Notes: generated by a model not told the origin, from the letters alone. A stretch of DNA of 64,000 nucleotides from Candidatus Kapaibacterium sp. (GCA_035445085.1 DAOMQA010000003.1:44368-108367); one strand, 5' to 3'. Counted from the first letter of the stretch, positions 3,691-11,315 are shown. Program-made: numbers and translations.

Positions 3691-4404
3691 ATGGATTTTT
3701 TTATTTGGACTGGCTTTACCTTAGGAATCTTTGGTAGTTTGCATTGTTTGGGTATGTGTGGACCATTGGTATTAGCTATACCAATTATAAGTAAAACAAA
3801 GTTTGGAATTGCACTCGATGGCATAATTTATAATTTGGGGCGTACACTTACTTATACATTTATGGGCTTTTTATTAGGAGTGTTGGGTGTTTCAGTAAAA
3901 TTTGCTGGCATACAAGATTATGTTTCTATTACCTTAGGTGTTTTATTATTGCTTTCCTTGGTTGTGCCACGTAAGTATTATAAATCATTGGATAGTAAAA
4001 AAAGTATCAATAAAATTGTCATTAATATTAAAAAGCAATTCAAATCATTAATAGAAACGAGAAGCAGATTTTCTTTGCTTTTTATTGGTGTCTTAAATGG
4101 ATTTTTGCCTTGTGGACTGGTGTACGCTGCCTTAGCTGGCTCATTAGCTATGAATGACCTAGCGAGTAGCTCTTTATATATGTTTGCCTTTGGGTTAGGT
4201 ACTATACCAATGCTTGCTACTGTATATTTTACTAAAAACCTATTTACTCCTAAGTTGCGTGCTAATCTAAATAAGCTTATTCCATATACGATAGCAGTAG
4301 TTGCCGTGATATTAATCCTTAGAGGATTAAACTTAGGTATACCTTATATTAGTCCCACGCCTCAAAGTCTTGAGATAACAAATAGCGGTGCTTGTTGCCA
4401 CTAA
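3691..4404 (+). CDS. DsbD_2 / TauE-SafE-like membrane protein of the cbb3 maturation cluster
   Basis: GSLHCLGMCGPLV, YNLGR, GFLPCGLVY motifs; C-terminal CCH. Confidence 0.88.
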   Translation: MDFFIWTGFTLGIFGSLHCLGMCGPLVLAIPIISKTKFGIALDGIIYNLGRTLTYTFMGFLLGVLGVSVKFAGIQDYVSITLGVLLLLSLVVPRKYYKSLDSKKSINKIVINIKKQFKSLIETRSRFSLLFIGVLNGFLPCGLVYAALAGSLAMNDLASSSLYMFAFGLGTIPMLATVYFTKNLFTPKLRANLNKLIPYTIAVVAVILILRGLNLGIPYISPTPQSLEITNSGACCH

Positions 4405-4532
4405 CGGTTTGCGGCTTTGCGCTCGGACGGGCAATCGAAGCACTAAAGTTGAATTTAGTACAACCGCTGAATATAGCACAAATGTTGAATTTTGTACTTC
4501 TCCCCAGCTCTTGCAAAACCGCTTGTTATGCC
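4397..4532 (-). repeat. attC-like site (136 bp) after the DUF262 cassette
   Basis: Minus strand GGCATAAC...GTTAGTGGC; imperfect hairpin arms gcggctttgcg/tgcaaaaccgc and gaagcac/gtacttc. Confidence 0.8.
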
Positions 4533-4546
4533 TTCGCCCTTCTTTT

Positions 4547-6615
4547 CTAGTCAGTATATTTGATTGATAATTCGTCTTCAAATCCAAAAATTGTCAAGGC
4601 TTGTTTTATTCTGTCAAACTTGCCCATATTGTCAAGATTTGCTTCTATAAAATATGTATCACTTATCGGAACTGCTTGTCTTAGTCCACTTGTTTCAGGT
4701 GTTTTAGTCAAACTTAATCTGTCGCCAATTTCTGATGTAAAAAAAGTTTCTGGTTGTAAGTCGAATAGTTGCTTAAATACTTCAATGTAAAGTTTTGCTA
4801 CTTGTGTAACTTCAAGTTTTTGATTGAAGAAAATCGCATATTCTAATTTTTTGTGTTTGGGGTCTTCTGCATCAAAAATACTTATTTCGTCATTAGTCGC
4901 TTCAAGCTCAATATTTATTTCTGGAATTCCCCAAATTTTTATAAAGCGTTCTGAAATTGTGTTTGCTCTCATTTCAATTTCAGACTTATTCCACTTCGTT
5001 TTTTCTTTTAAATCTCTATTTAGCCAAAGTCTGCTGAAAATGTATCCTTGTTCTTTACCGTCCACGTTCATTACTTTCTTGTCAAGAAATGGCTTGTTAC
5101 TTAATTTGCCGTTGTTGCCTGAAAGAGTAAGATTTCCGATTGTGTTTAGATAGTTTTCTTTTATCAAATTGTATTCGTCTGCACCTAATTCAATTTTCCA
5201 TTTTGGGTCAGGGTTTTGCGGAAAAATATGTTCAATAGTTATATTGGAATTTCCTTCAATTGCTACTGGTTCATTGTTTTGAAAGTTTTCAAGTCGTTCT
5301 AATAAGTAAGTTCGGTTTTTAGGTTTAATGTTGTAAACATCTTTTTCTTTTAGTGCGTTTATCGTTTCTGTGTTTCTTGGGAAACGTTGAACACCAGACC
5401 TTTGAAGTAAAGATTTTTGAATTGAAAACAAATAATTGTTTGGCTCAACTTTATCATATAAGCCCATAAATATTTTATTAAGTGCATTGGTAGGCAAGCC
5501 TAAAATAAAACGTCTGAATATGAATGATTGAACTGTCGATAAAACTGAAATAAAAGTTGCTTTATCAATTATGTTATTTGAAAAATCTTCATAAACTTTC
5601 ATTAAGAATGGAAACGCAACATTTATTTCTAACCTGTTGATGTATTCAAGTTGAGTTCGTATTAGCTTATCAGGTTCATTTTTTGGGTTAGTCAGTTTGT
5701 TGTAATACTTAACTAATGATTGTAATTCTGCTAGGACAAGCTCTAATTCGTTAATAGTTGAAGTCGGATATTTTTCTTTGAATTTTGTATAAACGTCTCC
5801 TTTATTTGGAATTTCTTTGTTTTTAAGTGTCAAATAATCCCGGATAAACTCAGAAACACGAGTTTTATTTAATGTCTCATCCTTAGCATTTTTCTCGATT
5901 ACTTCCCAATAGTTTTTGTAAATTTTGTCTTGATTGATTCTTGAAAGTCCCATCAAAATATAATTTCTAATAAGATCAGCTTGTGATAATTCAAGTCCTG
6001 TCGAATTCAAACTTTCAAAAATTCTTTGTGGATTGTCTCTTTGTCTATCAAGAGCAATATCAACAAAAATTAGCTTTGAAAGTCCACGCTGAACAACTTC
6101 AAAGTTCTCCGCATTAATTGCTGACCTGAAATAAACAAAATTCTCAATAATTTTTGAGTAGCCTCTAAATTCTTCTCCGTCTGTTGAATTTAGAATGTGT
6201 CGAAGTGCTTCTTTATTATTTTCTGTTGGTTTTAACTTTAACTTTTCTTCTCCGGGTGCAAATTCATTTATCAAATAAGTTTTCTGAATTCGGTTGGCCA
6301 CATTTGGTTGTCAAGTTCCTTCGCAAGGCGGTAAAGTGCAATGTAAATTAAGGTAATTGTTGTAAGCCTTTGCTGTCCATCAATGATGGTTAATTCAGTC
6401 AAACCCGAAGCCGTGTAAACGTCATCGTGAACATAAACTATACTTCCAATAAAGTGAGCATTTGTCTTGTCGTTCTTTCCCGTTTCAATTATGTCGTGAA
6501 GTAATTGTTTACATTGAAACAATGTCCAATCGTAATTTCTCTGATAAACAGGAATGGCAAATGTCGTTTCATTTGTTGCTAAAAATTTATCTACTTTGGT
6601 TTCGTTCGCTTTCAT
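4547..6615 (-). pseudogene. GmrSD-like DUF262 + DUF1524 (HNH) putative type IV restriction protein, split by a 1-bp frameshift near 6300
   Basis: ORF 6615-6271 has IPVYQRNYDW and IIDGQQRLTT. ORF 6301-4547 has FESLNSTGLELSQADLIRN, TIEHIFPQ and IGNLTLSGNNGKLSN. Adding one T (ATG TTG GCC) joins them into about 689 aa. Confidence 0.85.
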
Positions 6616-6648
6616 ATTTTATTTCTGCCTGTCAGTTTGTTTACGGTT

Positions 6649-6898
6649 GCCACTAGCTTACAAATATACGAACATTCGTATATAAATACTAATACAACAA
6701 TTAATATTATTTCTAATATACGAAAAAAATTAGTATTTTCCGATAACTAATAATTCCTTTCTAATTTAATTATAAAACAACTTTCTATTTAGGTACGCTT
6801 TCAATGGCTGAAAGTTGCGACTTGCGAGGGTGGGTGGTGGAGTACAAAAGTTTAATTTAGCACTTCAGCCCCCATTTTGCCAAACCCTTGTTAGTGGC
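6649..6898 (-). repeat. Composite att site, copy 1 (250 bp): attC-like arm + AT-rich palindromic module
   Basis: Direct repeat of 7511-7758; minus-strand ends GCCACTAAC ... GCTAGTGGC. Confidence 0.85.
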
Positions 6899-7490
6899 TG
6901 CCTTTCTTTGCATCTGTAAGTTTCAAATATTCGTTTCCTCGTCTCTCTATCAAGTTTTCTAAACTTTCAAAATAGTTCAGTCCTGCAAGTCCTGTCCCGT
7001 ATGGTGCAACTGTTATTTCACTAATCAAATATCCATTGTCTAATAGGAGAAGTCCTTTATCGGTATCGTCTGCATACCAAATAAAGTCAACTATTTTTCT
7101 GTTCTTAATATGTTTTAGTTTGTTTTCCCTGTAGTCAACTTTATATGGTTGATAATCCTTGATTACGATGTCTTGTCCAAATAAAAATTTACGAAGTCTG
7201 TTAAATATATTCTGTCTTTGTCGTTGGTAACTATCGGCAATTTCTCCGACTGTTTTGTTGTTCTTGTTGACGTAATAAATGGGATAGTCCGATAAGTCAG
7301 CGAAAAGGCTTACAGCTTCTTTGTTTAACTCCTTTAACCAAATGTCGTCATTATGACAAAGTGGAATGTCAATAATATATTTGTTGTCAAGTTCTATAAA
7401 ACACTCACAAGTGTCTAAGCCGCCAACCTCCATTTTTAACAATGAATAAATGTTTGTAACAGTTTTACCTATAATTTCTCCTGTCTGCAT
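6891..7490 (-). CDS. Hypothetical cassette protein (199 aa)
   Basis: ATG 29 bp after the GTTAGTGGC core; stop codon lies inside the GCCACTAAC box; no motif recognised. Confidence 0.8.
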   Translation of the reverse strand: MQTGEIIGKTVTNIYSLLKMEVGGLDTCECFIELDNKYIIDIPLCHNDDIWLKELNKEAVSLFADLSDYPIYYVNKNNKTVGEIADSYQRQRQNIFNRLRKFLFGQDIVIKDYQPYKVDYRENKLKHIKNRKIVDFIWYADDTDKGLLLLDNGYLISEITVAPYGTGLAGLNYFESLENLIERRGNEYLKLTDAKKGSH

Positions 7491-7510
7491 CTCGGGTGTT
7501 GGTTAAGGTT

Positions 7511-7758
7511 GCCACTAACTTATAAATATACGAACATTCGTATATAAATACTAATTCAACAATTAATATTATTTCTAATATACGAAAAAAATTAATATTT
7601 TCCGATAACTAATAATCCCTTCCTAATTTAATTATAAAACAACTTTCTATTTAGGTACGCTTTCAATGGCTGAAAGTACTACTTGCAGGTGGGTGGGGGG
7701 AGTACAAAAGTTCAATTTAGCACTTCAGCCCCCATTTTGCCAAACCCTTGTTGTGTGC
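7511..7758 (-). repeat. Composite att site, copy 2 (248 bp)
   Basis: Direct repeat of 6649-6898; minus-strand ends GCACACAAC ... GTTAGTGGC. Confidence 0.85.
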
Positions 7759-7767
7759 AGTGCTTTT

Positions 7768-8622
7768 TTAGCCATATTTTTCTGCTGGTTCAAATAATGT
7801 CAATTGTTGTTGTTCTGGTAATGCTTCAAGATAGTTTGAAATAAAAAGCTCTTTCCCTTTTTGGTCTGCACTTGCTGTTACATTTCGCATTCCATACATC
7901 AATTCCCAAGGTATAATATTTGCAAATGAAAACAACTCTCTAATGTATTCGCTGTCGTCATAAGTAATGAGCCATTTATGCTTGCAGGTCTTCATATTGT
8001 CGGCAAACTTAACGTGGTCAAATGATTTGTGCATATTGCCATTCTTTCCATATAGTGCCGATTTTGTTGCTGAATAATAAGGTGGGTCAAGAAAAATAAA
8101 AACATTTTCTCCGTCCTTTTTCAATAATTCTTCATAATCAAGGTTTGTGATAGTTGAACCATTTATAACTTTTGCAAATTGGTTAAGTCGTTGAATACTA
8201 CTTTCTGTAAAGCGTCCTATAAAAGCACCTTCACTAAAACCACCACTCAAACTTGTTCCTGAAAATGTTATTCGGTTATATATAAAAAATGCTGCACCTC
8301 TTTCTAAATCGTTGAATGAAGCCAAATTTTCATTTAGAAATTTATGTAATTCTTTCCCTACTGGAAATTGGTTACGCCATTCATAAATTTTGTCAATAAG
8401 AGCATCTACATCTTTTTGGGCCATCTCCCAAAACTTGTAGAGTTCAAAATAAAGGTCGTTAATCCAAAAAGTTTTATTTGGAAAGCGTTGTTTTGCATAA
8501 ATGAAAATTGAACCACCGCCTAAAAATGGTTCTCTAAATTCGTCAAATTCAGGAATAATTGTAGATATTAAATCTACCGACCTGCTTTTTCCACCTGGGT
8601 ATCTTAACGGACTTTTTATCAT
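7768..8622 (-). CDS. Dam/D12-class N6-adenine DNA methyltransferase
   Basis: KSPLRYPGGKS, EPFLGGGS (SAM binding), FLDPPY (catalytic). Confidence 0.93.
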   Translation of the reverse strand: MIKSPLRYPGGKSRSVDLISTIIPEFDEFREPFLGGGSIFIYAKQRFPNKTFWINDLYFELYKFWEMAQKDVDALIDKIYEWRNQFPVGKELHKFLNENLASFNDLERGAAFFIYNRITFSGTSLSGGFSEGAFIGRFTESSIQRLNQFAKVINGSTITNLDYEELLKKDGENVFIFLDPPYYSATKSALYGKNGNMHKSFDHVKFADNMKTCKHKWLITYDDSEYIRELFSFANIIPWELMYGMRNVTASADQKGKELFISNYLEALPEQQQLTLFEPAEKYG

Positions 8623-9710
8623 TTTGAATATTGTATTTGAATGATAAAATTATTTTGTTTAGCTTCAGCAAAAATGGTTTCTACTAATTTGATTTGTTGT
8701 GTTGAAAAACTATTTTCGGTAAAAAAGTTTGCAATATCTTTTTTTGTACTTGTAGAAGTTATTGCACCTTTTAATTTTGAAGAGGTTAAGTTTAGCACTG
8801 CTTCACTTTTTATTTTATTTCCATTAGCAGTAACTTCCGAAAGGTTGCAATACAAAATCAATTTCAAAAGCCCGTCTTTTATGTCGCCTTTGCTTGGCAG
8901 TAAAGCATTTTTACTGTGCTTTCCTTCTATTAAATTTACTTTGTTTGGTGTGATTTTTATTTCATCAACTGTCAAAAAATATTGCCCACCTAAATAATTG
9001 GTAATTGTAACTTTTGCTTTTGAAAGTGTAGATAAACTTTCTTTTGGTTGTTGTGTAACAAACTCTCTTGATTGTGCTTTTTGTGCTTTCTCTCTTGAAA
9101 AAGCCATAAAAAATGAAACATCTTTGCCAATTTTTTCTTTGAAGTTGTCTAACCCACTTGGATTGTGTAGTTTAACTTTTGTAGTTAATTCAATGTTGCC
9201 ATAAGAGGTTTTGACTTTATCAATAATCTTATGCAGATTTGTATTTAATTCATTCAAATTCCAATGTAAAGCCGAACTATGATATTGTTCTATTTCCTTT
9301 ATTTTGGATAATATGTATTTATTGTTAAACTCTTGATTGGTTATTTTTTCGTCCGCATTTTCTGCTTTGTCGTAATATGCAAAAATTACAAAAACATCTA
9401 ATAAAGACATTAATGAAACAGTATCCCATTGTATAAAATCTCTATCGCCTTTTGCTCCTTCGTCTTTTACAACTGGAATAACAGTAATTTTCTTTGAAAT
9501 GTGTAGAGTATTATACACTCTTTCAAAAGGATAAGAACGTGTTCTTTTTGGCGAAACCCATTTGGAAATTGCAAATGTATGTTTGTTGCTTGTTAGCAAA
9601 CAAGCCGAAGGCATTTCGTTAATATCAAAGTTTTTGATTTTAACTTCTTTCAAGTCCTCTGTGAAAAGTACTTGATATTTTATGCCTGTTATTTTGCCAA
9701 CTATGTCCAT
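8619..9710 (-). CDS. Putative type II restriction endonuclease, partner of the MTase
   Basis: ATGA overlap with the MTase; PD-(D/E)xK-like TVDEI...LIEGKH; specificity unknown. Confidence 0.65.
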   Translation of the reverse strand: MDIVGKITGIKYQVLFTEDLKEVKIKNFDINEMPSACLLTSNKHTFAISKWVSPKRTRSYPFERVYNTLHISKKITVIPVVKDEGAKGDRDFIQWDTVSLMSLLDVFVIFAYYDKAENADEKITNQEFNNKYILSKIKEIEQYHSSALHWNLNELNTNLHKIIDKVKTSYGNIELTTKVKLHNPSGLDNFKEKIGKDVSFFMAFSREKAQKAQSREFVTQQPKESLSTLSKAKVTITNYLGGQYFLTVDEIKITPNKVNLIEGKHSKNALLPSKGDIKDGLLKLILYCNLSEVTANGNKIKSEAVLNLTSSKLKGAITSTSTKKDIANFFTENSFSTQQIKLVETIFAEAKQNNFIIQIQYSK

Positions 9711-9784
9711 TCGATACGAAATATTAAATTTTGGTCAAAGCTACAAATTTATAGTTTGATTTTTTGCAGGTGTCTTTTAAGCTT

Positions 9785-9882
9785 GCACACAACGAGCCGC
9801 GTATTGCCGAAGGCGGGATTTTTAGCACTGAACTTGATACGAAGTCGTTCAGCCCGCCTATTGCCAATACGATGTTGTGTGC
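9785..9882 (-). repeat. attC-like site (98 bp)
   Basis: Perfect 9-bp terminal inverted repeat gcacacaac/gttgtgtgc; inner arms gtattgccgaaggcggg / cccgcctattgccaatac with mismatched or extrahelical bases. Confidence 0.88.
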
Positions 9883-9898
9883 TGTGCTTTCTATGTTG

Positions 9899-10465
9899 TT
9901 AGTTTGTTTCAATTTGTTTCCGTTCTTCGTCTGTCAGTTCGTAAAGGTCGTAAATTATTTGGTTTATCTTATCTTCTGTAAATGAAATTCTGTTTTCTAA
10001 TTGCTCTTTTTTGTCTGCCAAAGTTACGGTTTGAAGTTCGCCAATTAGTTTTAGAAGTAAGGAAGTTTGCTTTTTAACTTCGTTGTATTGGTCTTGTTGA
10101 TTTTGACCGATTTCGGGTATTGGCAATTTCTCCAAATAACTTCCTTTAATTTTTGGAAAGGTCTGGCGTAAATCCGAGAAATTTTCAGTCCAGTAATTGG
10201 CAATAAATTTTGAGTTTAAGACTGCTAAAAGAAATTTGATGTCAATGCTTGCTTCTGTTTTTGGTACAATCATGAAAACGGTATTCAAACAAGCATAGCC
10301 GTTTTCATTGTCAATATCCCAACCGAGAGCTTTCCAAAACGGGTCGATAAAATCCCGTCTTGTTTGCGTTTCATTATAGTCTGATTTTTTGTAAAATTCT
10401 TTTTGTTCGTCAAACCGCTGAACCAACAATTTTATTTTTTTAAGTGCTTCGTCTTTTGTTTGCAT
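9899..10465 (-). pseudogene. Internally deleted type IIG (Eco57I/TaqI-like) restriction-modification gene; N-terminus fused in frame to the C-terminal specificity region
   Basis: NETQTRRDFIDPFWKALGWDIDNENGYA is followed directly by CLNTVFMI...FLLAVLNSK...FPKIKGSYLEKLPIP...INQIIYDLYELTDEE; no nuclease or MTase catalytic motifs remain. Confidence 0.8.
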
Positions 10466-10587
10466 CCACTTTTCCAATTTAGAGCCGTAAATGTTTTATT
10501 ATCGCTTATTAGTACTTCCATTAATTCGATATAGAAGGCTAAATCTTAAAATAATTATAAGAAAAGTTAATAAACAATAATTACTTA

Positions 10588-10618
10588 TTGTTTTTTTTAG
10601 CAAAATATCATATTTTTG
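10588..10618 (+). promoter_or_regulatory. Putative Bacteroidota-type sigma70 promoter for the act operon
   Basis: TTG at 10588-10590 and TATTTTTG (TAnnTTTG) at 10611-10618, 20-nt spacer. Confidence 0.45.
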
Positions 10619-10742
10619 GAACTCTGTTAATAAGTTTTAATAATAATTGGTATATTTTATTTATATTGCCTTTTATAAATGTAGTATCAATTATTATTAT
10701 TTATATAGAATATTGTAATTTTTAATTAAAAGTAGGTTAAAT

Positions 10743-11315
10743 GTGAAAAAAACAGTACTTGATTATGCTCTGAAGGTAAAACTTCCGCTGACTGTTTTTG
10801 TGATATTAGCAACTTTTGCAGTTACATACTTTGTAGCAAAACCAGAAAGAGATGGTGTAGGCTATCAGCCTAAACAACCAATCGCTTTCTCGCATAAGTT
10901 GCATGCCGGTGATATGGCTATCGATTGCCAATATTGCCATACTAGTGTTACAAAAACAAGGCACGCAAGTATCCCTTCTGCTAATACTTGTATGAACTGC
11001 CATAGCGTAGTCCGTACAGACAAGCCCGAAATCATCAAACTTACAGAATATTACAAAAACAATCAACCAATTCCATGGGTAAGGATTCATAGAGTACCCG
11101 AATATGCTTACTTTAATCATAGTGTGCATGTTAATAATGGCATTGATTGTGAAAATTGTCACGGTAATGTTCGTAAGATGGAAGTCGTGCAACAATCTCA
11201 CTCATTTACTATGGGTGCTTGTCTCGACTGTCACCGCAACCCTCACGAGAGAATGCCTCAAATGAAAGGAGTAATTAACAAAGGTCCAACTCATTGTAAT
11301 GCATGTCACCGTTAG
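10743..11315 (+). CDS. actA: Alternative complex III pentaheme cytochrome c subunit ActA
   Basis: GTG start, N-terminal TM helix, QPIAFSHKLHAG, five CxxCH (CQYCH, CMNCH, CENCH, CLDCH, CNACH). Confidence 0.93.
   Translation: MKKTVLDYALKVKLPLTVFVILATFAVTYFVAKPERDGVGYQPKQPIAFSHKLHAGDMAIDCQYCHTSVTKTRHASIPSANTCMNCHSVVRTDKPEIIKLTEYYKNNQPIPWVRIHRVPEYAYFNHSVHVNNGIDCENCHGNVRKMEVVQQSHSFTMGACLDCHRNPHERMPQMKGVINKGPTHCNACHR

Follow-up and report, generated by a model that had tools for sequence, protein, structure and literature searches.

Within a 64,000-nucleotide (64-kb) stretch of a Candidatus Kapaibacterium sp. genome (GCA_035445085.1, DAOMQA010000003.1:44368-108367), referred to here at its full length as the window, positions 4397-10477 form a block in which coding is confined to the minus strand, set between two plus-strand respiratory gene sets and equal to its flanks in GC content. 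The block is made up of four gene cassettes and the palindromic sites that follow them, and it is very probably a chromosomal array of mobile cassettes belonging to an integron-like system that is widespread in the Bacteroidota. A preliminary description of the sequence had proposed four such units, and all four were recovered, with every AAC and GTT box at the position given for it; three of the four are restriction-type by Pfam and PADLOC, as had been suggested, and the only one of these that appears intact is a type II restriction-modification (R-M) pair. As the units lie on the minus strand, their coordinates are quoted from high to low.

Cassette 1 (open reading frame, ORF, 10477-9899) encodes a 192-aa remnant of a type IIG restriction-methyltransferase, in which about 55 N-terminal residues are joined to the C-terminal TaqI_C specificity domain (Pfam) and in which matches to the PADLOC profile REase_MTase_IIG are limited to profile positions 6-56 and 1131-1245; its end box, GCACACAAC, lies at 9882-9874, 17 nt beyond the stop codon. 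Cassette 2 opens with the start box GTTGTGTGC at 9793-9785 and, after a leader of 74 nt, carries the type II R-M pair, composed of a restriction endonuclease (REase, 9710-8619; PADLOC REase_II, 1.2e-76, profile positions 6-303 of 371) and a D12 N6-adenine methyltransferase (MTase, 8622-7768; Pfam PF02086; PADLOC MTase_II, 1.2e-106, profile positions 1-272 of 282), and it closes with a second copy of GCACACAAC at 7758-7750, 10 nt after the stop codon. With a full-length REase adjacent to an MTase of the cognate type, the pair looks intact.

Cassette 3 begins with GTTAGTGGC at 7519-7511 and, after a leader of only 20 nt, encodes a conserved 199-aa protein (ORF 7490-6891) whose stop codon is overlapped by the end box GCCACTAAC at 6898-6890. 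This protein has no match in the Pfam and PADLOC scans, its 168 homologues are, where named, all from Bacteroidota, and its confident AlphaFold model (pLDDT 88.7) finds no fold match in the PDB at E 0.001; the protein may represent a new fold or function that is carried on cassettes. Cassette 4 starts at GCTAGTGGC (6657-6649), has a leader of 33 nt, and carries a GmrSD-type (DUF262/DUF1524) type IV restriction gene (ORF 6615-4547; Pfam GmrSD_N and GmrSD_C; PADLOC Orf5/HEC-06) that is followed by the end box GGCATAAC at 4532-4525. The GmrSD_N and GmrSD_C domains are encoded in two reading frames and not as a single polypeptide, with the frameshift located near 6271-6301 beside a short A run, CAGAAAACTT. 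The same frameshift is found in an independent Logan assembly (L045), and it could be either a true mutation or a slippage-prone tract.

The cassettes are bounded by four candidate attachment (att) sites, designated A to D. Short boxes are by themselves weak evidence, and it is the matches to whole sites that are significant. These were scored with a covariance model (CM), R1, built from 32 foreign sites with the window's own sequences excluded, and with an nhmmer profile of 180 foreign sites. Site A (9785..9882, minus strand), running from GCACACAAC to GTTGTGTGC, is a full att site (R1 92.2 bits, E 1.8e-22; nhmmer 65.5 bits) of the short type, 37 nt being deleted from its apical part. Its DNA folds into an imperfect hairpin of -26.9 kcal/mol (z -5.4; none of 200 shuffles was as good), with a 9-bp R (outer) stem, an asymmetric spacer of 2 versus 6 nt, an L (inner) stem, and bulges. 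Site D (4397..4532, minus strand), from GGCATAAC at 4532-4525 to GTTAGTGGC at 4405-4397, is likewise a full site (R1 34.3 bits, E 6.4e-7; nhmmer 75 bits, E 2.5e-21); it has a weak fold, and through it the array is fused with the flanking gene's 3' end. Sites B (7511..7758, minus strand; GCACACAAC at 7758-7750 to GTTAGTGGC at 7519-7511) and C (6649..6898, minus strand; ending in GCTAGTGGC) each reach 40 bits with nhmmer (E 1.4e-10) over a match restricted to model positions 3-64, and with R1 site C scores 16.3 bits (E 0.046) and site B falls under the reporting threshold; all other R1 matches within the 64 kb have E values of 0.67 or worse. Because of these matches, sites A and D are regarded as bona fide members of the family, and B and C as retaining the 5' half alone. 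Two full and two partial sites thus occur within 5.5 kb, and the boundaries between units are co-oriented palindromes of 98-250 nt rather than alternating 28-bp dif-like sites.

Sites B and C are not simple hairpins; these are composites of about 250 nt each, built alike and mutually 91-96% identical, with the repeat families D1-D3 in B. In site C a canonical 5' half (6901-6841) is followed by a degenerate 3' half in which TTT replaces the expected GTT, and in both sites the 3' part consists of about 170 nt of AT-rich sequence with TTCGTATAT and ATATACGAA repeats and a 20-bp palindrome, ATATACGAATGTTCGTATAT. A perfect 9-bp inverted repeat, ATATACGAA-TG-TTCGTATAT, occurs at 6664-6688 and at 7521-7545, lying ~25 nt ahead of the cassette 3 and cassette 4 start boxes, with further copies of TTCGTATAT nearby; its appearance suggests an operator or a repeat bound by a recombinase. 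The consensus of the -7 promoter element in Bacteroidota is TAnnTTTG, and the AT-rich part of site C contains a box, TATATTTG, that fits it; the start box of the next cassette (GTTAGTGGC or GCTAGTGGC) follows directly after the B or C stretch. B and C are read here as composite sites that would provide a promoter, and perhaps a duplex entry site, for the next cassette. Their 3' ends also resemble the attI-like junctions found beside recombinase genes of other genomes. The ending TTCGTATATTT../GTTA is also found in front of a GmrSD gene in a foreign array (L143) and after a gene for a homologue of the 199-aa protein in a Terrimonas locus (L260). A more extended homology of the AT-rich segments was sought in a 190-nt spacer of another strain's allele and in the spacer preceding GmrSD in L143, and was rejected: the last ~20 nt, TTCGTATATTTGTRAGTTA, are common to them and the remainder is not convincingly alignable.

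The sites of the window belong to a large family. A degenerate 20-mer common to sites A-C, run as a search pattern on a collection of species-representative genomes, recovered at least 120 loci, about two-thirds of which contain one conserved element; nearly all of these are from Bacteroidota, in the orders Flavobacteriales, Chitinophagales, Sphingobacteriales, Cytophagales, and Bacteroidales. The consensus can be written as xxxxxxAAC ATCGTATTGGCAATAGGCGGGCTGAAC ... GTTCAGTGCTAAAAATCCCGCCCATCGCCAATACGCGGCAC GTTxxxxxx, an imperfect palindrome of about 90-210 nt that varies in its apical part. It has the architecture of an attC site, with R''/L''/L'/R' boxes and AAC and GTT cores; AAC...GTT is present in 179 of 204 family sites, and the wider RYYYAAC/GTTRRRY consensus is not followed. 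The sites form co-oriented arrays, up to 10 in 8 kb (L147) or eight at a time (L110 and L120), with a median spacing of 886 nt between consecutive sites, and in 98 of 112 cassettes the site strand is the one that bears the longest ORF. Among 114 sites aligned to the model, 93% of the cells are paired, versus 34-46% when the partners are slid, and two-sided changes number 400 cells versus 55-86 with slid partners; compensatory change is seen in 29 of 30 pairs, and the main helices contain few one-sided G-U intermediates. The hairpin is under selection.

The att sites had been described as divergent from proteobacterial attC, and this agrees with what was found. Rfam searches of the island and of a 10-site array in E-value mode gave no meaningful match, Flavo-1 included, and no family reached the gathering score over the whole 64 kb. 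The text of the IntegronFinder 2.0 census likewise cites few integrons in this phylum, naming for Bacteroidetes proper In0 and one complete integron, that of Salinibacter ruber (PMC9024848). When R1 was applied to loci with homologues of the 199-aa protein it found no site; as inspection of L260 by eye reveals short or promoter-type sites with matching boxes, R1 must miss a part of the site diversity. The family is rare in viral contigs (IMG/VR, 2.9 million), where five pattern matches included three true sites (L265, L266, and L267). Some recurrent sequences adjoin the sites. In L143 a 35-nt sequence, tactactatcgctcaccgtaggtgtcgcttGAAC, occurs twice (2428-2470 and 7900-7940), each time directly before a site and in one case adjoining the gene for a 31%-identical recombinase, and ends of a similar kind (...caccggaggt...gaac) stand before sites of L096 and of Myroides contigs; sequences of this type may mark the start of an array. 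Short perfect hairpins such as GTTGAGCGGAAATCCCTTCGGGCTTCCCGCTCAAC are found directly after some GTT boxes (L089 at ~5480, L184 upstream of the recombinase, L099, and L145) and have the look of mini-cassettes without an ORF, or of a second type of site.

The variable bases beside the cores are the most informative feature of these arrays. It had been noted that in two cassettes the start box and the end box are exact reverse complements of each other, and this was borne out for cassettes 2 and 3, each matching at 9 of 9 positions; given a fixed AAC and GTT, the chance that all 6 nt match is 1/4096 per cassette. The same relation was then looked for in 100 cassettes from other genomes, each bounded by two full sites, and it proved to be strongly developed: in 75 of the 100, the six bases before AAC at the cassette end are the exact reverse complement of the six bases after GTT at the cassette's own start, and eight further cassettes match at five of six. 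Mean matches are 5.31/6 between own end box and own start box, 2.74/6 between the two boxes of one site, which is the chance level, and 2.53/6 for random box pairs. After removal of duplicates 63 of 88 cassettes are still perfect, with 38 distinct box sequences, and the mismatches fall mostly in intervals exceeding 2.5 kb, in which a site may have gone unnoticed. Since the boxes pair within a cassette and not within a site, the two ends would be paired only in an excised circle, which places the crossover at G/TT. A transposon with the start and end boxes as its terminal inverted repeats was considered and rejected: there are 38 variants of the box between cassettes, and GTT and AAC alone are constant.

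The array had been called integrase-less, which is true of the 64 kb: neither tblastn with the recombinase family described below nor a Pfam scan of 20 of the window's ORFs found a recombinase, and no attI-like site beside a recombinase is present in the window. In other genomes, tyrosine recombinases adjoin the arrays. They are Xer/IntI-like proteins of 273-361 aa, typified by the 279-aa recombinase of Apibacter muscae (NZ_SELG01000025, 171-7906; L150), whose gene is divergent from an array comprising aadS, an 802-aa ORF without an NCBIfam match, tet(X), aadS, and a 191-aa ORF, with one site after each gene. The catalytic residues RKHRHY are complete. The best structural matches of this protein are archaeal XerA (4a8e, 129.6 bits, and 5hxy, 120.8 bits), nearly tied with IntI4 (2a3v, 120.7 bits), the latter match being in two stretches. 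On the integron-integrase profiles it scores 195.8 bits with TIGR02249 (cut-off 265) and 131.8 bits with PRK15417 (cut-off 435), again in two stretches that skip profile positions ~177-253, the IntI-specific insertion; the additional domain that defines IntI is absent from the window and from the array-linked recombinases.

Relatives of this recombinase number more than 4154 at E <= 1e-30, with annotations limited to 'tyrosine-type recombinase/integrase' or 'XerD', and more than 577 loci encoding them were found in the genome scan. Sites were mapped around the recombinase genes of the best 80 of the more than 577 loci, and two layouts emerged: in type 1 (the closer relatives, 48-99% identical) the array is found upstream of the gene and divergent from it, on the other strand, and in type 2 (41-49% identical) it lies downstream on the same strand. 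Strand polarity follows these layouts in 35 of the 36 loci that bear a site. Between the recombinase gene and the first cassette there is an attI-like junction, an AT-rich segment of 90-200 nt with short repeats that ends in .../GTT; in L150 it reads ...AATAACAAT/GTTGTACGA, leading into the aadS cassette, which ends in TCGTACAAC. This aadS cassette (GTTGTACGA...TCGTACAAC, 887 nt) is identical in sequence in more than 20 loci from several Bacteroidota orders. Among 20 type-2 loci printed, the contigs of metagenome-assembled genomes (MAGs) end at GTT or a few bases from it in five (L211, L214, L238, L241, and L248), about 100 nt downstream of the recombinase stop codon; as the population seems to vary from this point onward, assembly would break at the crossover point. 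Two recombinases of 36-38% identity (L106 and L131) look like partners of IS91-type transposases and were excluded from the recombinase alignment. In L106 (3486-5599) the 38%-identical tyrosine recombinase overlaps the ORF of an IS91-type transposase, a pairing that is probably unrelated to the cassette system.

Differences among strains of the same species are found at the array's distal end, next to a plus-strand gene for a DsbD_2-type membrane protein (3691..4404; Pfam PF13386, E 2.6e-44) that belongs to a cbb3 oxidase/FixH cluster, as judged by synteny with ccoNOQP/FixG/FixH, and whose closest relatives among GTDB representatives are 43-46% identical. The stop codon of this gene falls within the final GTT box of the array, GTTAGTGGC at 4405-4397. 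In public assemblies of the same species the flanking proteins are identical and the flanking DNA is 98-99.7% identical; in five contigs the sequence following the DsbD_2-type gene differs from that of the window and presents another last cassette. The gene order is therefore not constant, strains carrying different cassettes at one and the same junction. One such allele (L049) encodes a 533-aa methyltransferase/specificity/AlbA_2 fusion with nearly matching boxes, GTTAGCTGC versus GCCGCTAAC, followed by a 95-nt site and a 190-nt spacer. The alleles are identical through ...GTTGCCA(C/T)TAA and diverge from the next base, which on the cassette strand is directly 5' of the box TTA (x/TTA); as CAC and CAT are both His codons, the flanking protein is the same in either allele. 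At the opposite end of the array, cassette 1 is common to all strains, and one and the same base within site A is the end point of three metagenome contigs from the species.

Relatives of the window's cargo recur in or near arrays elsewhere. A copy of the R-M pair (77-86% aa identity) is encoded by the array strand of L192, at a distance of 6 kb from a type-1 recombinase gene. A GmrSD homologue (65-74% aa identity) is present in L143 as a single intact ORF of 691 aa, bounded by the matching boxes GTTATGTGG and CCACATAAC and followed by a full site, and the Terrimonas homologue of the 199-aa protein (L260) is bounded by the matching boxes G(T)TAGCGGC and GCCGCTAAC. Together with the co-variation of the boxes and the cassette differences between strains, these occurrences support the earlier suggestion, read from sequence patterns, that the units are integron-like cassettes which circularise and re-insert at G/TT. 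The further suggestion of a modular anti-phage island needs correction: the array does store restriction-type genes, but the system is not a dedicated defence system, its cargo elsewhere being mixed. Among 92 cassette proteins from other arrays there is much antibiotic resistance (Tet(X)-like monooxygenases, AadS, small multidrug resistance pumps, and a penicillin-binding protein/beta-lactamase-type protein), along with Gcn5-related N-acetyltransferases, methyltransferases, glyoxalase/bleomycin-type proteins, and a chromate transporter; defence is represented by a few proteins, namely GmrSD, a GajB-like helicase, and mad2/3. The system is a general cassette store and not a defence-only one.

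At its other end the island is delimited by actA (10743..11315, plus strand; Pfam Cytochrome_C7/c3), which encodes the multihaem cytochrome of alternative complex III and has the act operon downstream. By reading of the sequence, an AT-rich spacer separates the array from actA (10478..10742), and neither the CM nor the hidden Markov model (HMM) recognised an att or attI-like site in it. An ORF on the opposite strand within actA (10806-11201, minus strand) is probably spurious. Ten further ORFs of the window included in the Pfam scan are housekeeping genes, none of them a recombinase.

A mechanism that would account for these arrays can be outlined as follows. Each cassette begins at the TT of a GTT box; a short leader and one or two ORFs come next, then a variable 6-nt box with AAC, and after that an imperfect palindrome of 90-210 nt whose end is the G of the following GTT. 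A tyrosine recombinase would cut G/TT in two such sites and release a circle, within which the cassette's end box would pair with its own start box, and the circle could re-insert at another G/TT, such as that of the attI-like site by the recombinase gene, of a further cassette, or of a secondary site resembling these; in the window the last box coincides with the flanking gene's stop codon. The site is probably active as a folded single strand, as is attC. The candidate enzyme is a recombinase of 273-361 aa, Xer/XerA/IntI-like and without the IntI-specific insertion, and, because it is not encoded in the window, it would either act in trans from elsewhere in the genome or have been lost; action in trans on the window's array is what we infer. 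The array stores restriction-type defence genes and is partly decayed, and the AT-rich, promoter-like 3' parts of B and C would probably drive the cassette that comes next.

Could the array be an ordinary integron remnant, a cluster of attC sites lacking integron-integrases (CALIN), with true attC sites served by a canonical IntI elsewhere? The architecture of the sites and the own-box rule are those of attC, and the linked recombinases do score on TIGR02249 and PRK15417. These scores, however, fall below the curated cut-offs and skip the IntI-specific insertion, the recombinases are of 273-361 aa with XerA as the top score and IntI4 as a near tie, the boxes (GTTAGCG, GTTATGT, and GTTACCT, for instance) deviate from GTTRRRY, and the census text has next to no integrons to offer in Bacteroidetes proper (PMC9024848), all of which makes a CALIN very improbable. 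That the housekeeping XerC/XerD moves the modules, as for the pdif modules of Acinetobacter or for IMEX, with no need of a dedicated enzyme, is an idea that draws on the Xer-like nature of the linked recombinases, which databases and papers annotate as XerD, and on the failure to find a dedicated recombinase in the window. As in those modules, discrete genes are bounded by Xer-family sites and the enzyme may be encoded elsewhere. Yet pdif is a 28-bp duplex that alternates in orientation and is acted on by host XerC/XerD, whereas the present sites are co-oriented hairpins of 90-210 nt, and a distinct accessory recombinase adjoins the arrays in fixed polarity and with an attI-like junction of its own; this explanation is improbable. 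Finally, sites that directly follow stop codons and form hairpins could terminate transcription, and the equal GC content of island and flanks would suit a static defence island in which the palindromes are terminators or repetitive extragenic palindromic (REP)-like repeats and the box matches incidental. A terminator or REP would predict pairing within the site, but the variable boxes pair with their own cassette start 0.2-3 kb away; G-U intermediates are rare in the main helices; cassette content varies among conspecific strains with breakpoints at TT; no Rfam family matches; and the 38 distinct boxes oppose the view that box co-variation is a duplication artefact. A static island is extremely unlikely.

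Several observations nevertheless weigh against an array of mobile cassettes at this locus. The boxes of cassette 4, GCTAGTGGC and GGCATAAC, match at one of six positions, and no start (5') box can be recognised for cassette 1. The folds of B (z -0.6) and C (z -1.6) are no better than those of shuffled sequences, and without a recognisable 3' half these two sites may be inactive. No tyrosine recombinase was detected among the 20 window ORFs scanned with Pfam. The sample of loci was seeded with one conserved 20-mer, which over-represents one subfamily of sites as well as sequenced drug-resistant isolates, and the pairing counts, coming from an alignment fitted to the model, lean towards structure, though the margin is large. 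Two of the three restriction-type cassettes are degraded, which may indicate that the array is a fossil. The explanation that follows from such points, an array assembled by the cassette system and now immobile in this lineage, its recombinase lost and its sites decaying, is possible, if on balance doubtful. It would be in keeping with the lack of a recombinase in the 64 kb, the degenerate 3' halves of sites B and C, the core of the GCTAGTGGC box, in which GTT shows a T-to-C change, the frameshift in GmrSD, the internal deletion of the type IIG gene, and the mismatched boxes of cassette 4. Against it, conspecific strains differ by a whole cassette with a clean TT junction, which points to recent site-specific events, and sites A and D are well preserved. 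An array of mobile cassettes remains the preferred explanation. With somewhat less assurance, we also favour the wider proposal that the window is a locus of a second, phylum-wide, and unrecognised integron-like lineage, in which a Xer/XerA-like recombinase never acquired the IntI insertion and occurs in two layouts with attI-like junctions. In this proposal, cassettes with a folded att-site family of their own would be excised and inserted at G/TT, some sites would bear promoters, and one system would transport tet(X), aadS, and further resistance genes in Flavobacteriales as well as defence genes of the type seen in the window.

The likeness to integrons is extensive. In both, co-oriented cassettes of one or two ORFs are each followed by an imperfect palindrome with AAC...GTT cores; the variable bases adjoining the cores are complementary to the start of the cassette in question, implying circles and a G/TT crossover; the length of the site varies with its apical part; a divergent or co-directional tyrosine recombinase adjoins the array, with an attI-like junction ending in G/TT; the cargo includes resistance, defence, and toxin-antitoxin genes; and arrays without a nearby integrase exist. 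On the other hand, the recombinase of the present family has no IntI-specific insertion and resembles XerA both in its length and in its best matches, the sites belong to another sequence family whose boxes are not RYYYAAC/GTTRRRY, some of them carry promoter-like AT-rich segments, and the host phylum is one for which the census text cites almost no integrons. The system is integron-like in anatomy, in its box rule, and in its platform, and, as the recombinase fails the test for IntI, it is not filed here as an integron.

Parts of this system may already have been encountered. A study of Riemerella anatipestifer reported that aph(3')-IVb, preceded by a 27-bp leader and followed by a 140-bp 3' region with a fold 'analogous to attC', integrates site-specifically and without flanking homology after natural transformation, as do lnu(H) and blaRATA, by a mechanism that the authors describe as not yet elucidated (2026, PMC13148043). 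By its description this unit, a gene with a ~27-bp leader and a ~140-bp folded 3' region that integrates without homology in Flavobacteriales hosts, is much like the cassettes considered here, and the present site family includes sites in R. anatipestifer contigs (L088, for example); that study differs in treating single genes, without arrays, the box rule, or a linked recombinase. Similarly, an 'xerD' gene has been noted upstream of and opposite to tet(X14), as it is for tet(X3) and tet(X5), no integron was found, and a role for XerD was raised as a question (2020, PMC7473080). On Acinetobacter plasmids and in Flavobacteriaceae this is the same kind of 279-aa recombinase, upstream and in the opposite direction (compare L150), whereas in the papers the gene figures as a neighbour whose role is unknown, and neither an integron nor a mobile element is reported there. 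Compact defence genes stockpiled as cassettes have been described from integrons (bioRxiv 10.1101/2024.07.02.601686), those being systems of Vibrio and other Pseudomonadota with IntI and classical attC; here the platform is another one and the defence cargo is mostly degraded. Apart from the two partial observations in Riemerella and beside tet(X), full-text searching of the literature turned up nothing on integron-like arrays in Bacteroidota, and neither the arrays nor the box rule nor the recombinase platform was found described, which does not prove that no account has been published; the system appears to be barely described.

Integrons are treated as essentially proteobacterial and are defined by IntI and attC, and the evidence assembled here points to an equivalent in the Bacteroidota that uses another recombinase and another family of sites. 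For the window, such a system would account for a block of restriction genes that sits between two respiratory operons and differs among near-identical strains; whether the array is still mobile depends on a recombinase outside the 64 kb. If the interpretation is true, it would also explain the 'xerD' beside tet(X) and the homology-independent integration seen in Riemerella, and would supply a testable mechanism for the movement of tet(X), aadS, and similar genes among Flavobacteriales and onward. The signature of the sites would allow Bacteroidota genomes to be mined for compact defence and resistance genes. Moreover, the capture of cassettes by way of folded DNA would either have evolved more than once or predate IntI.

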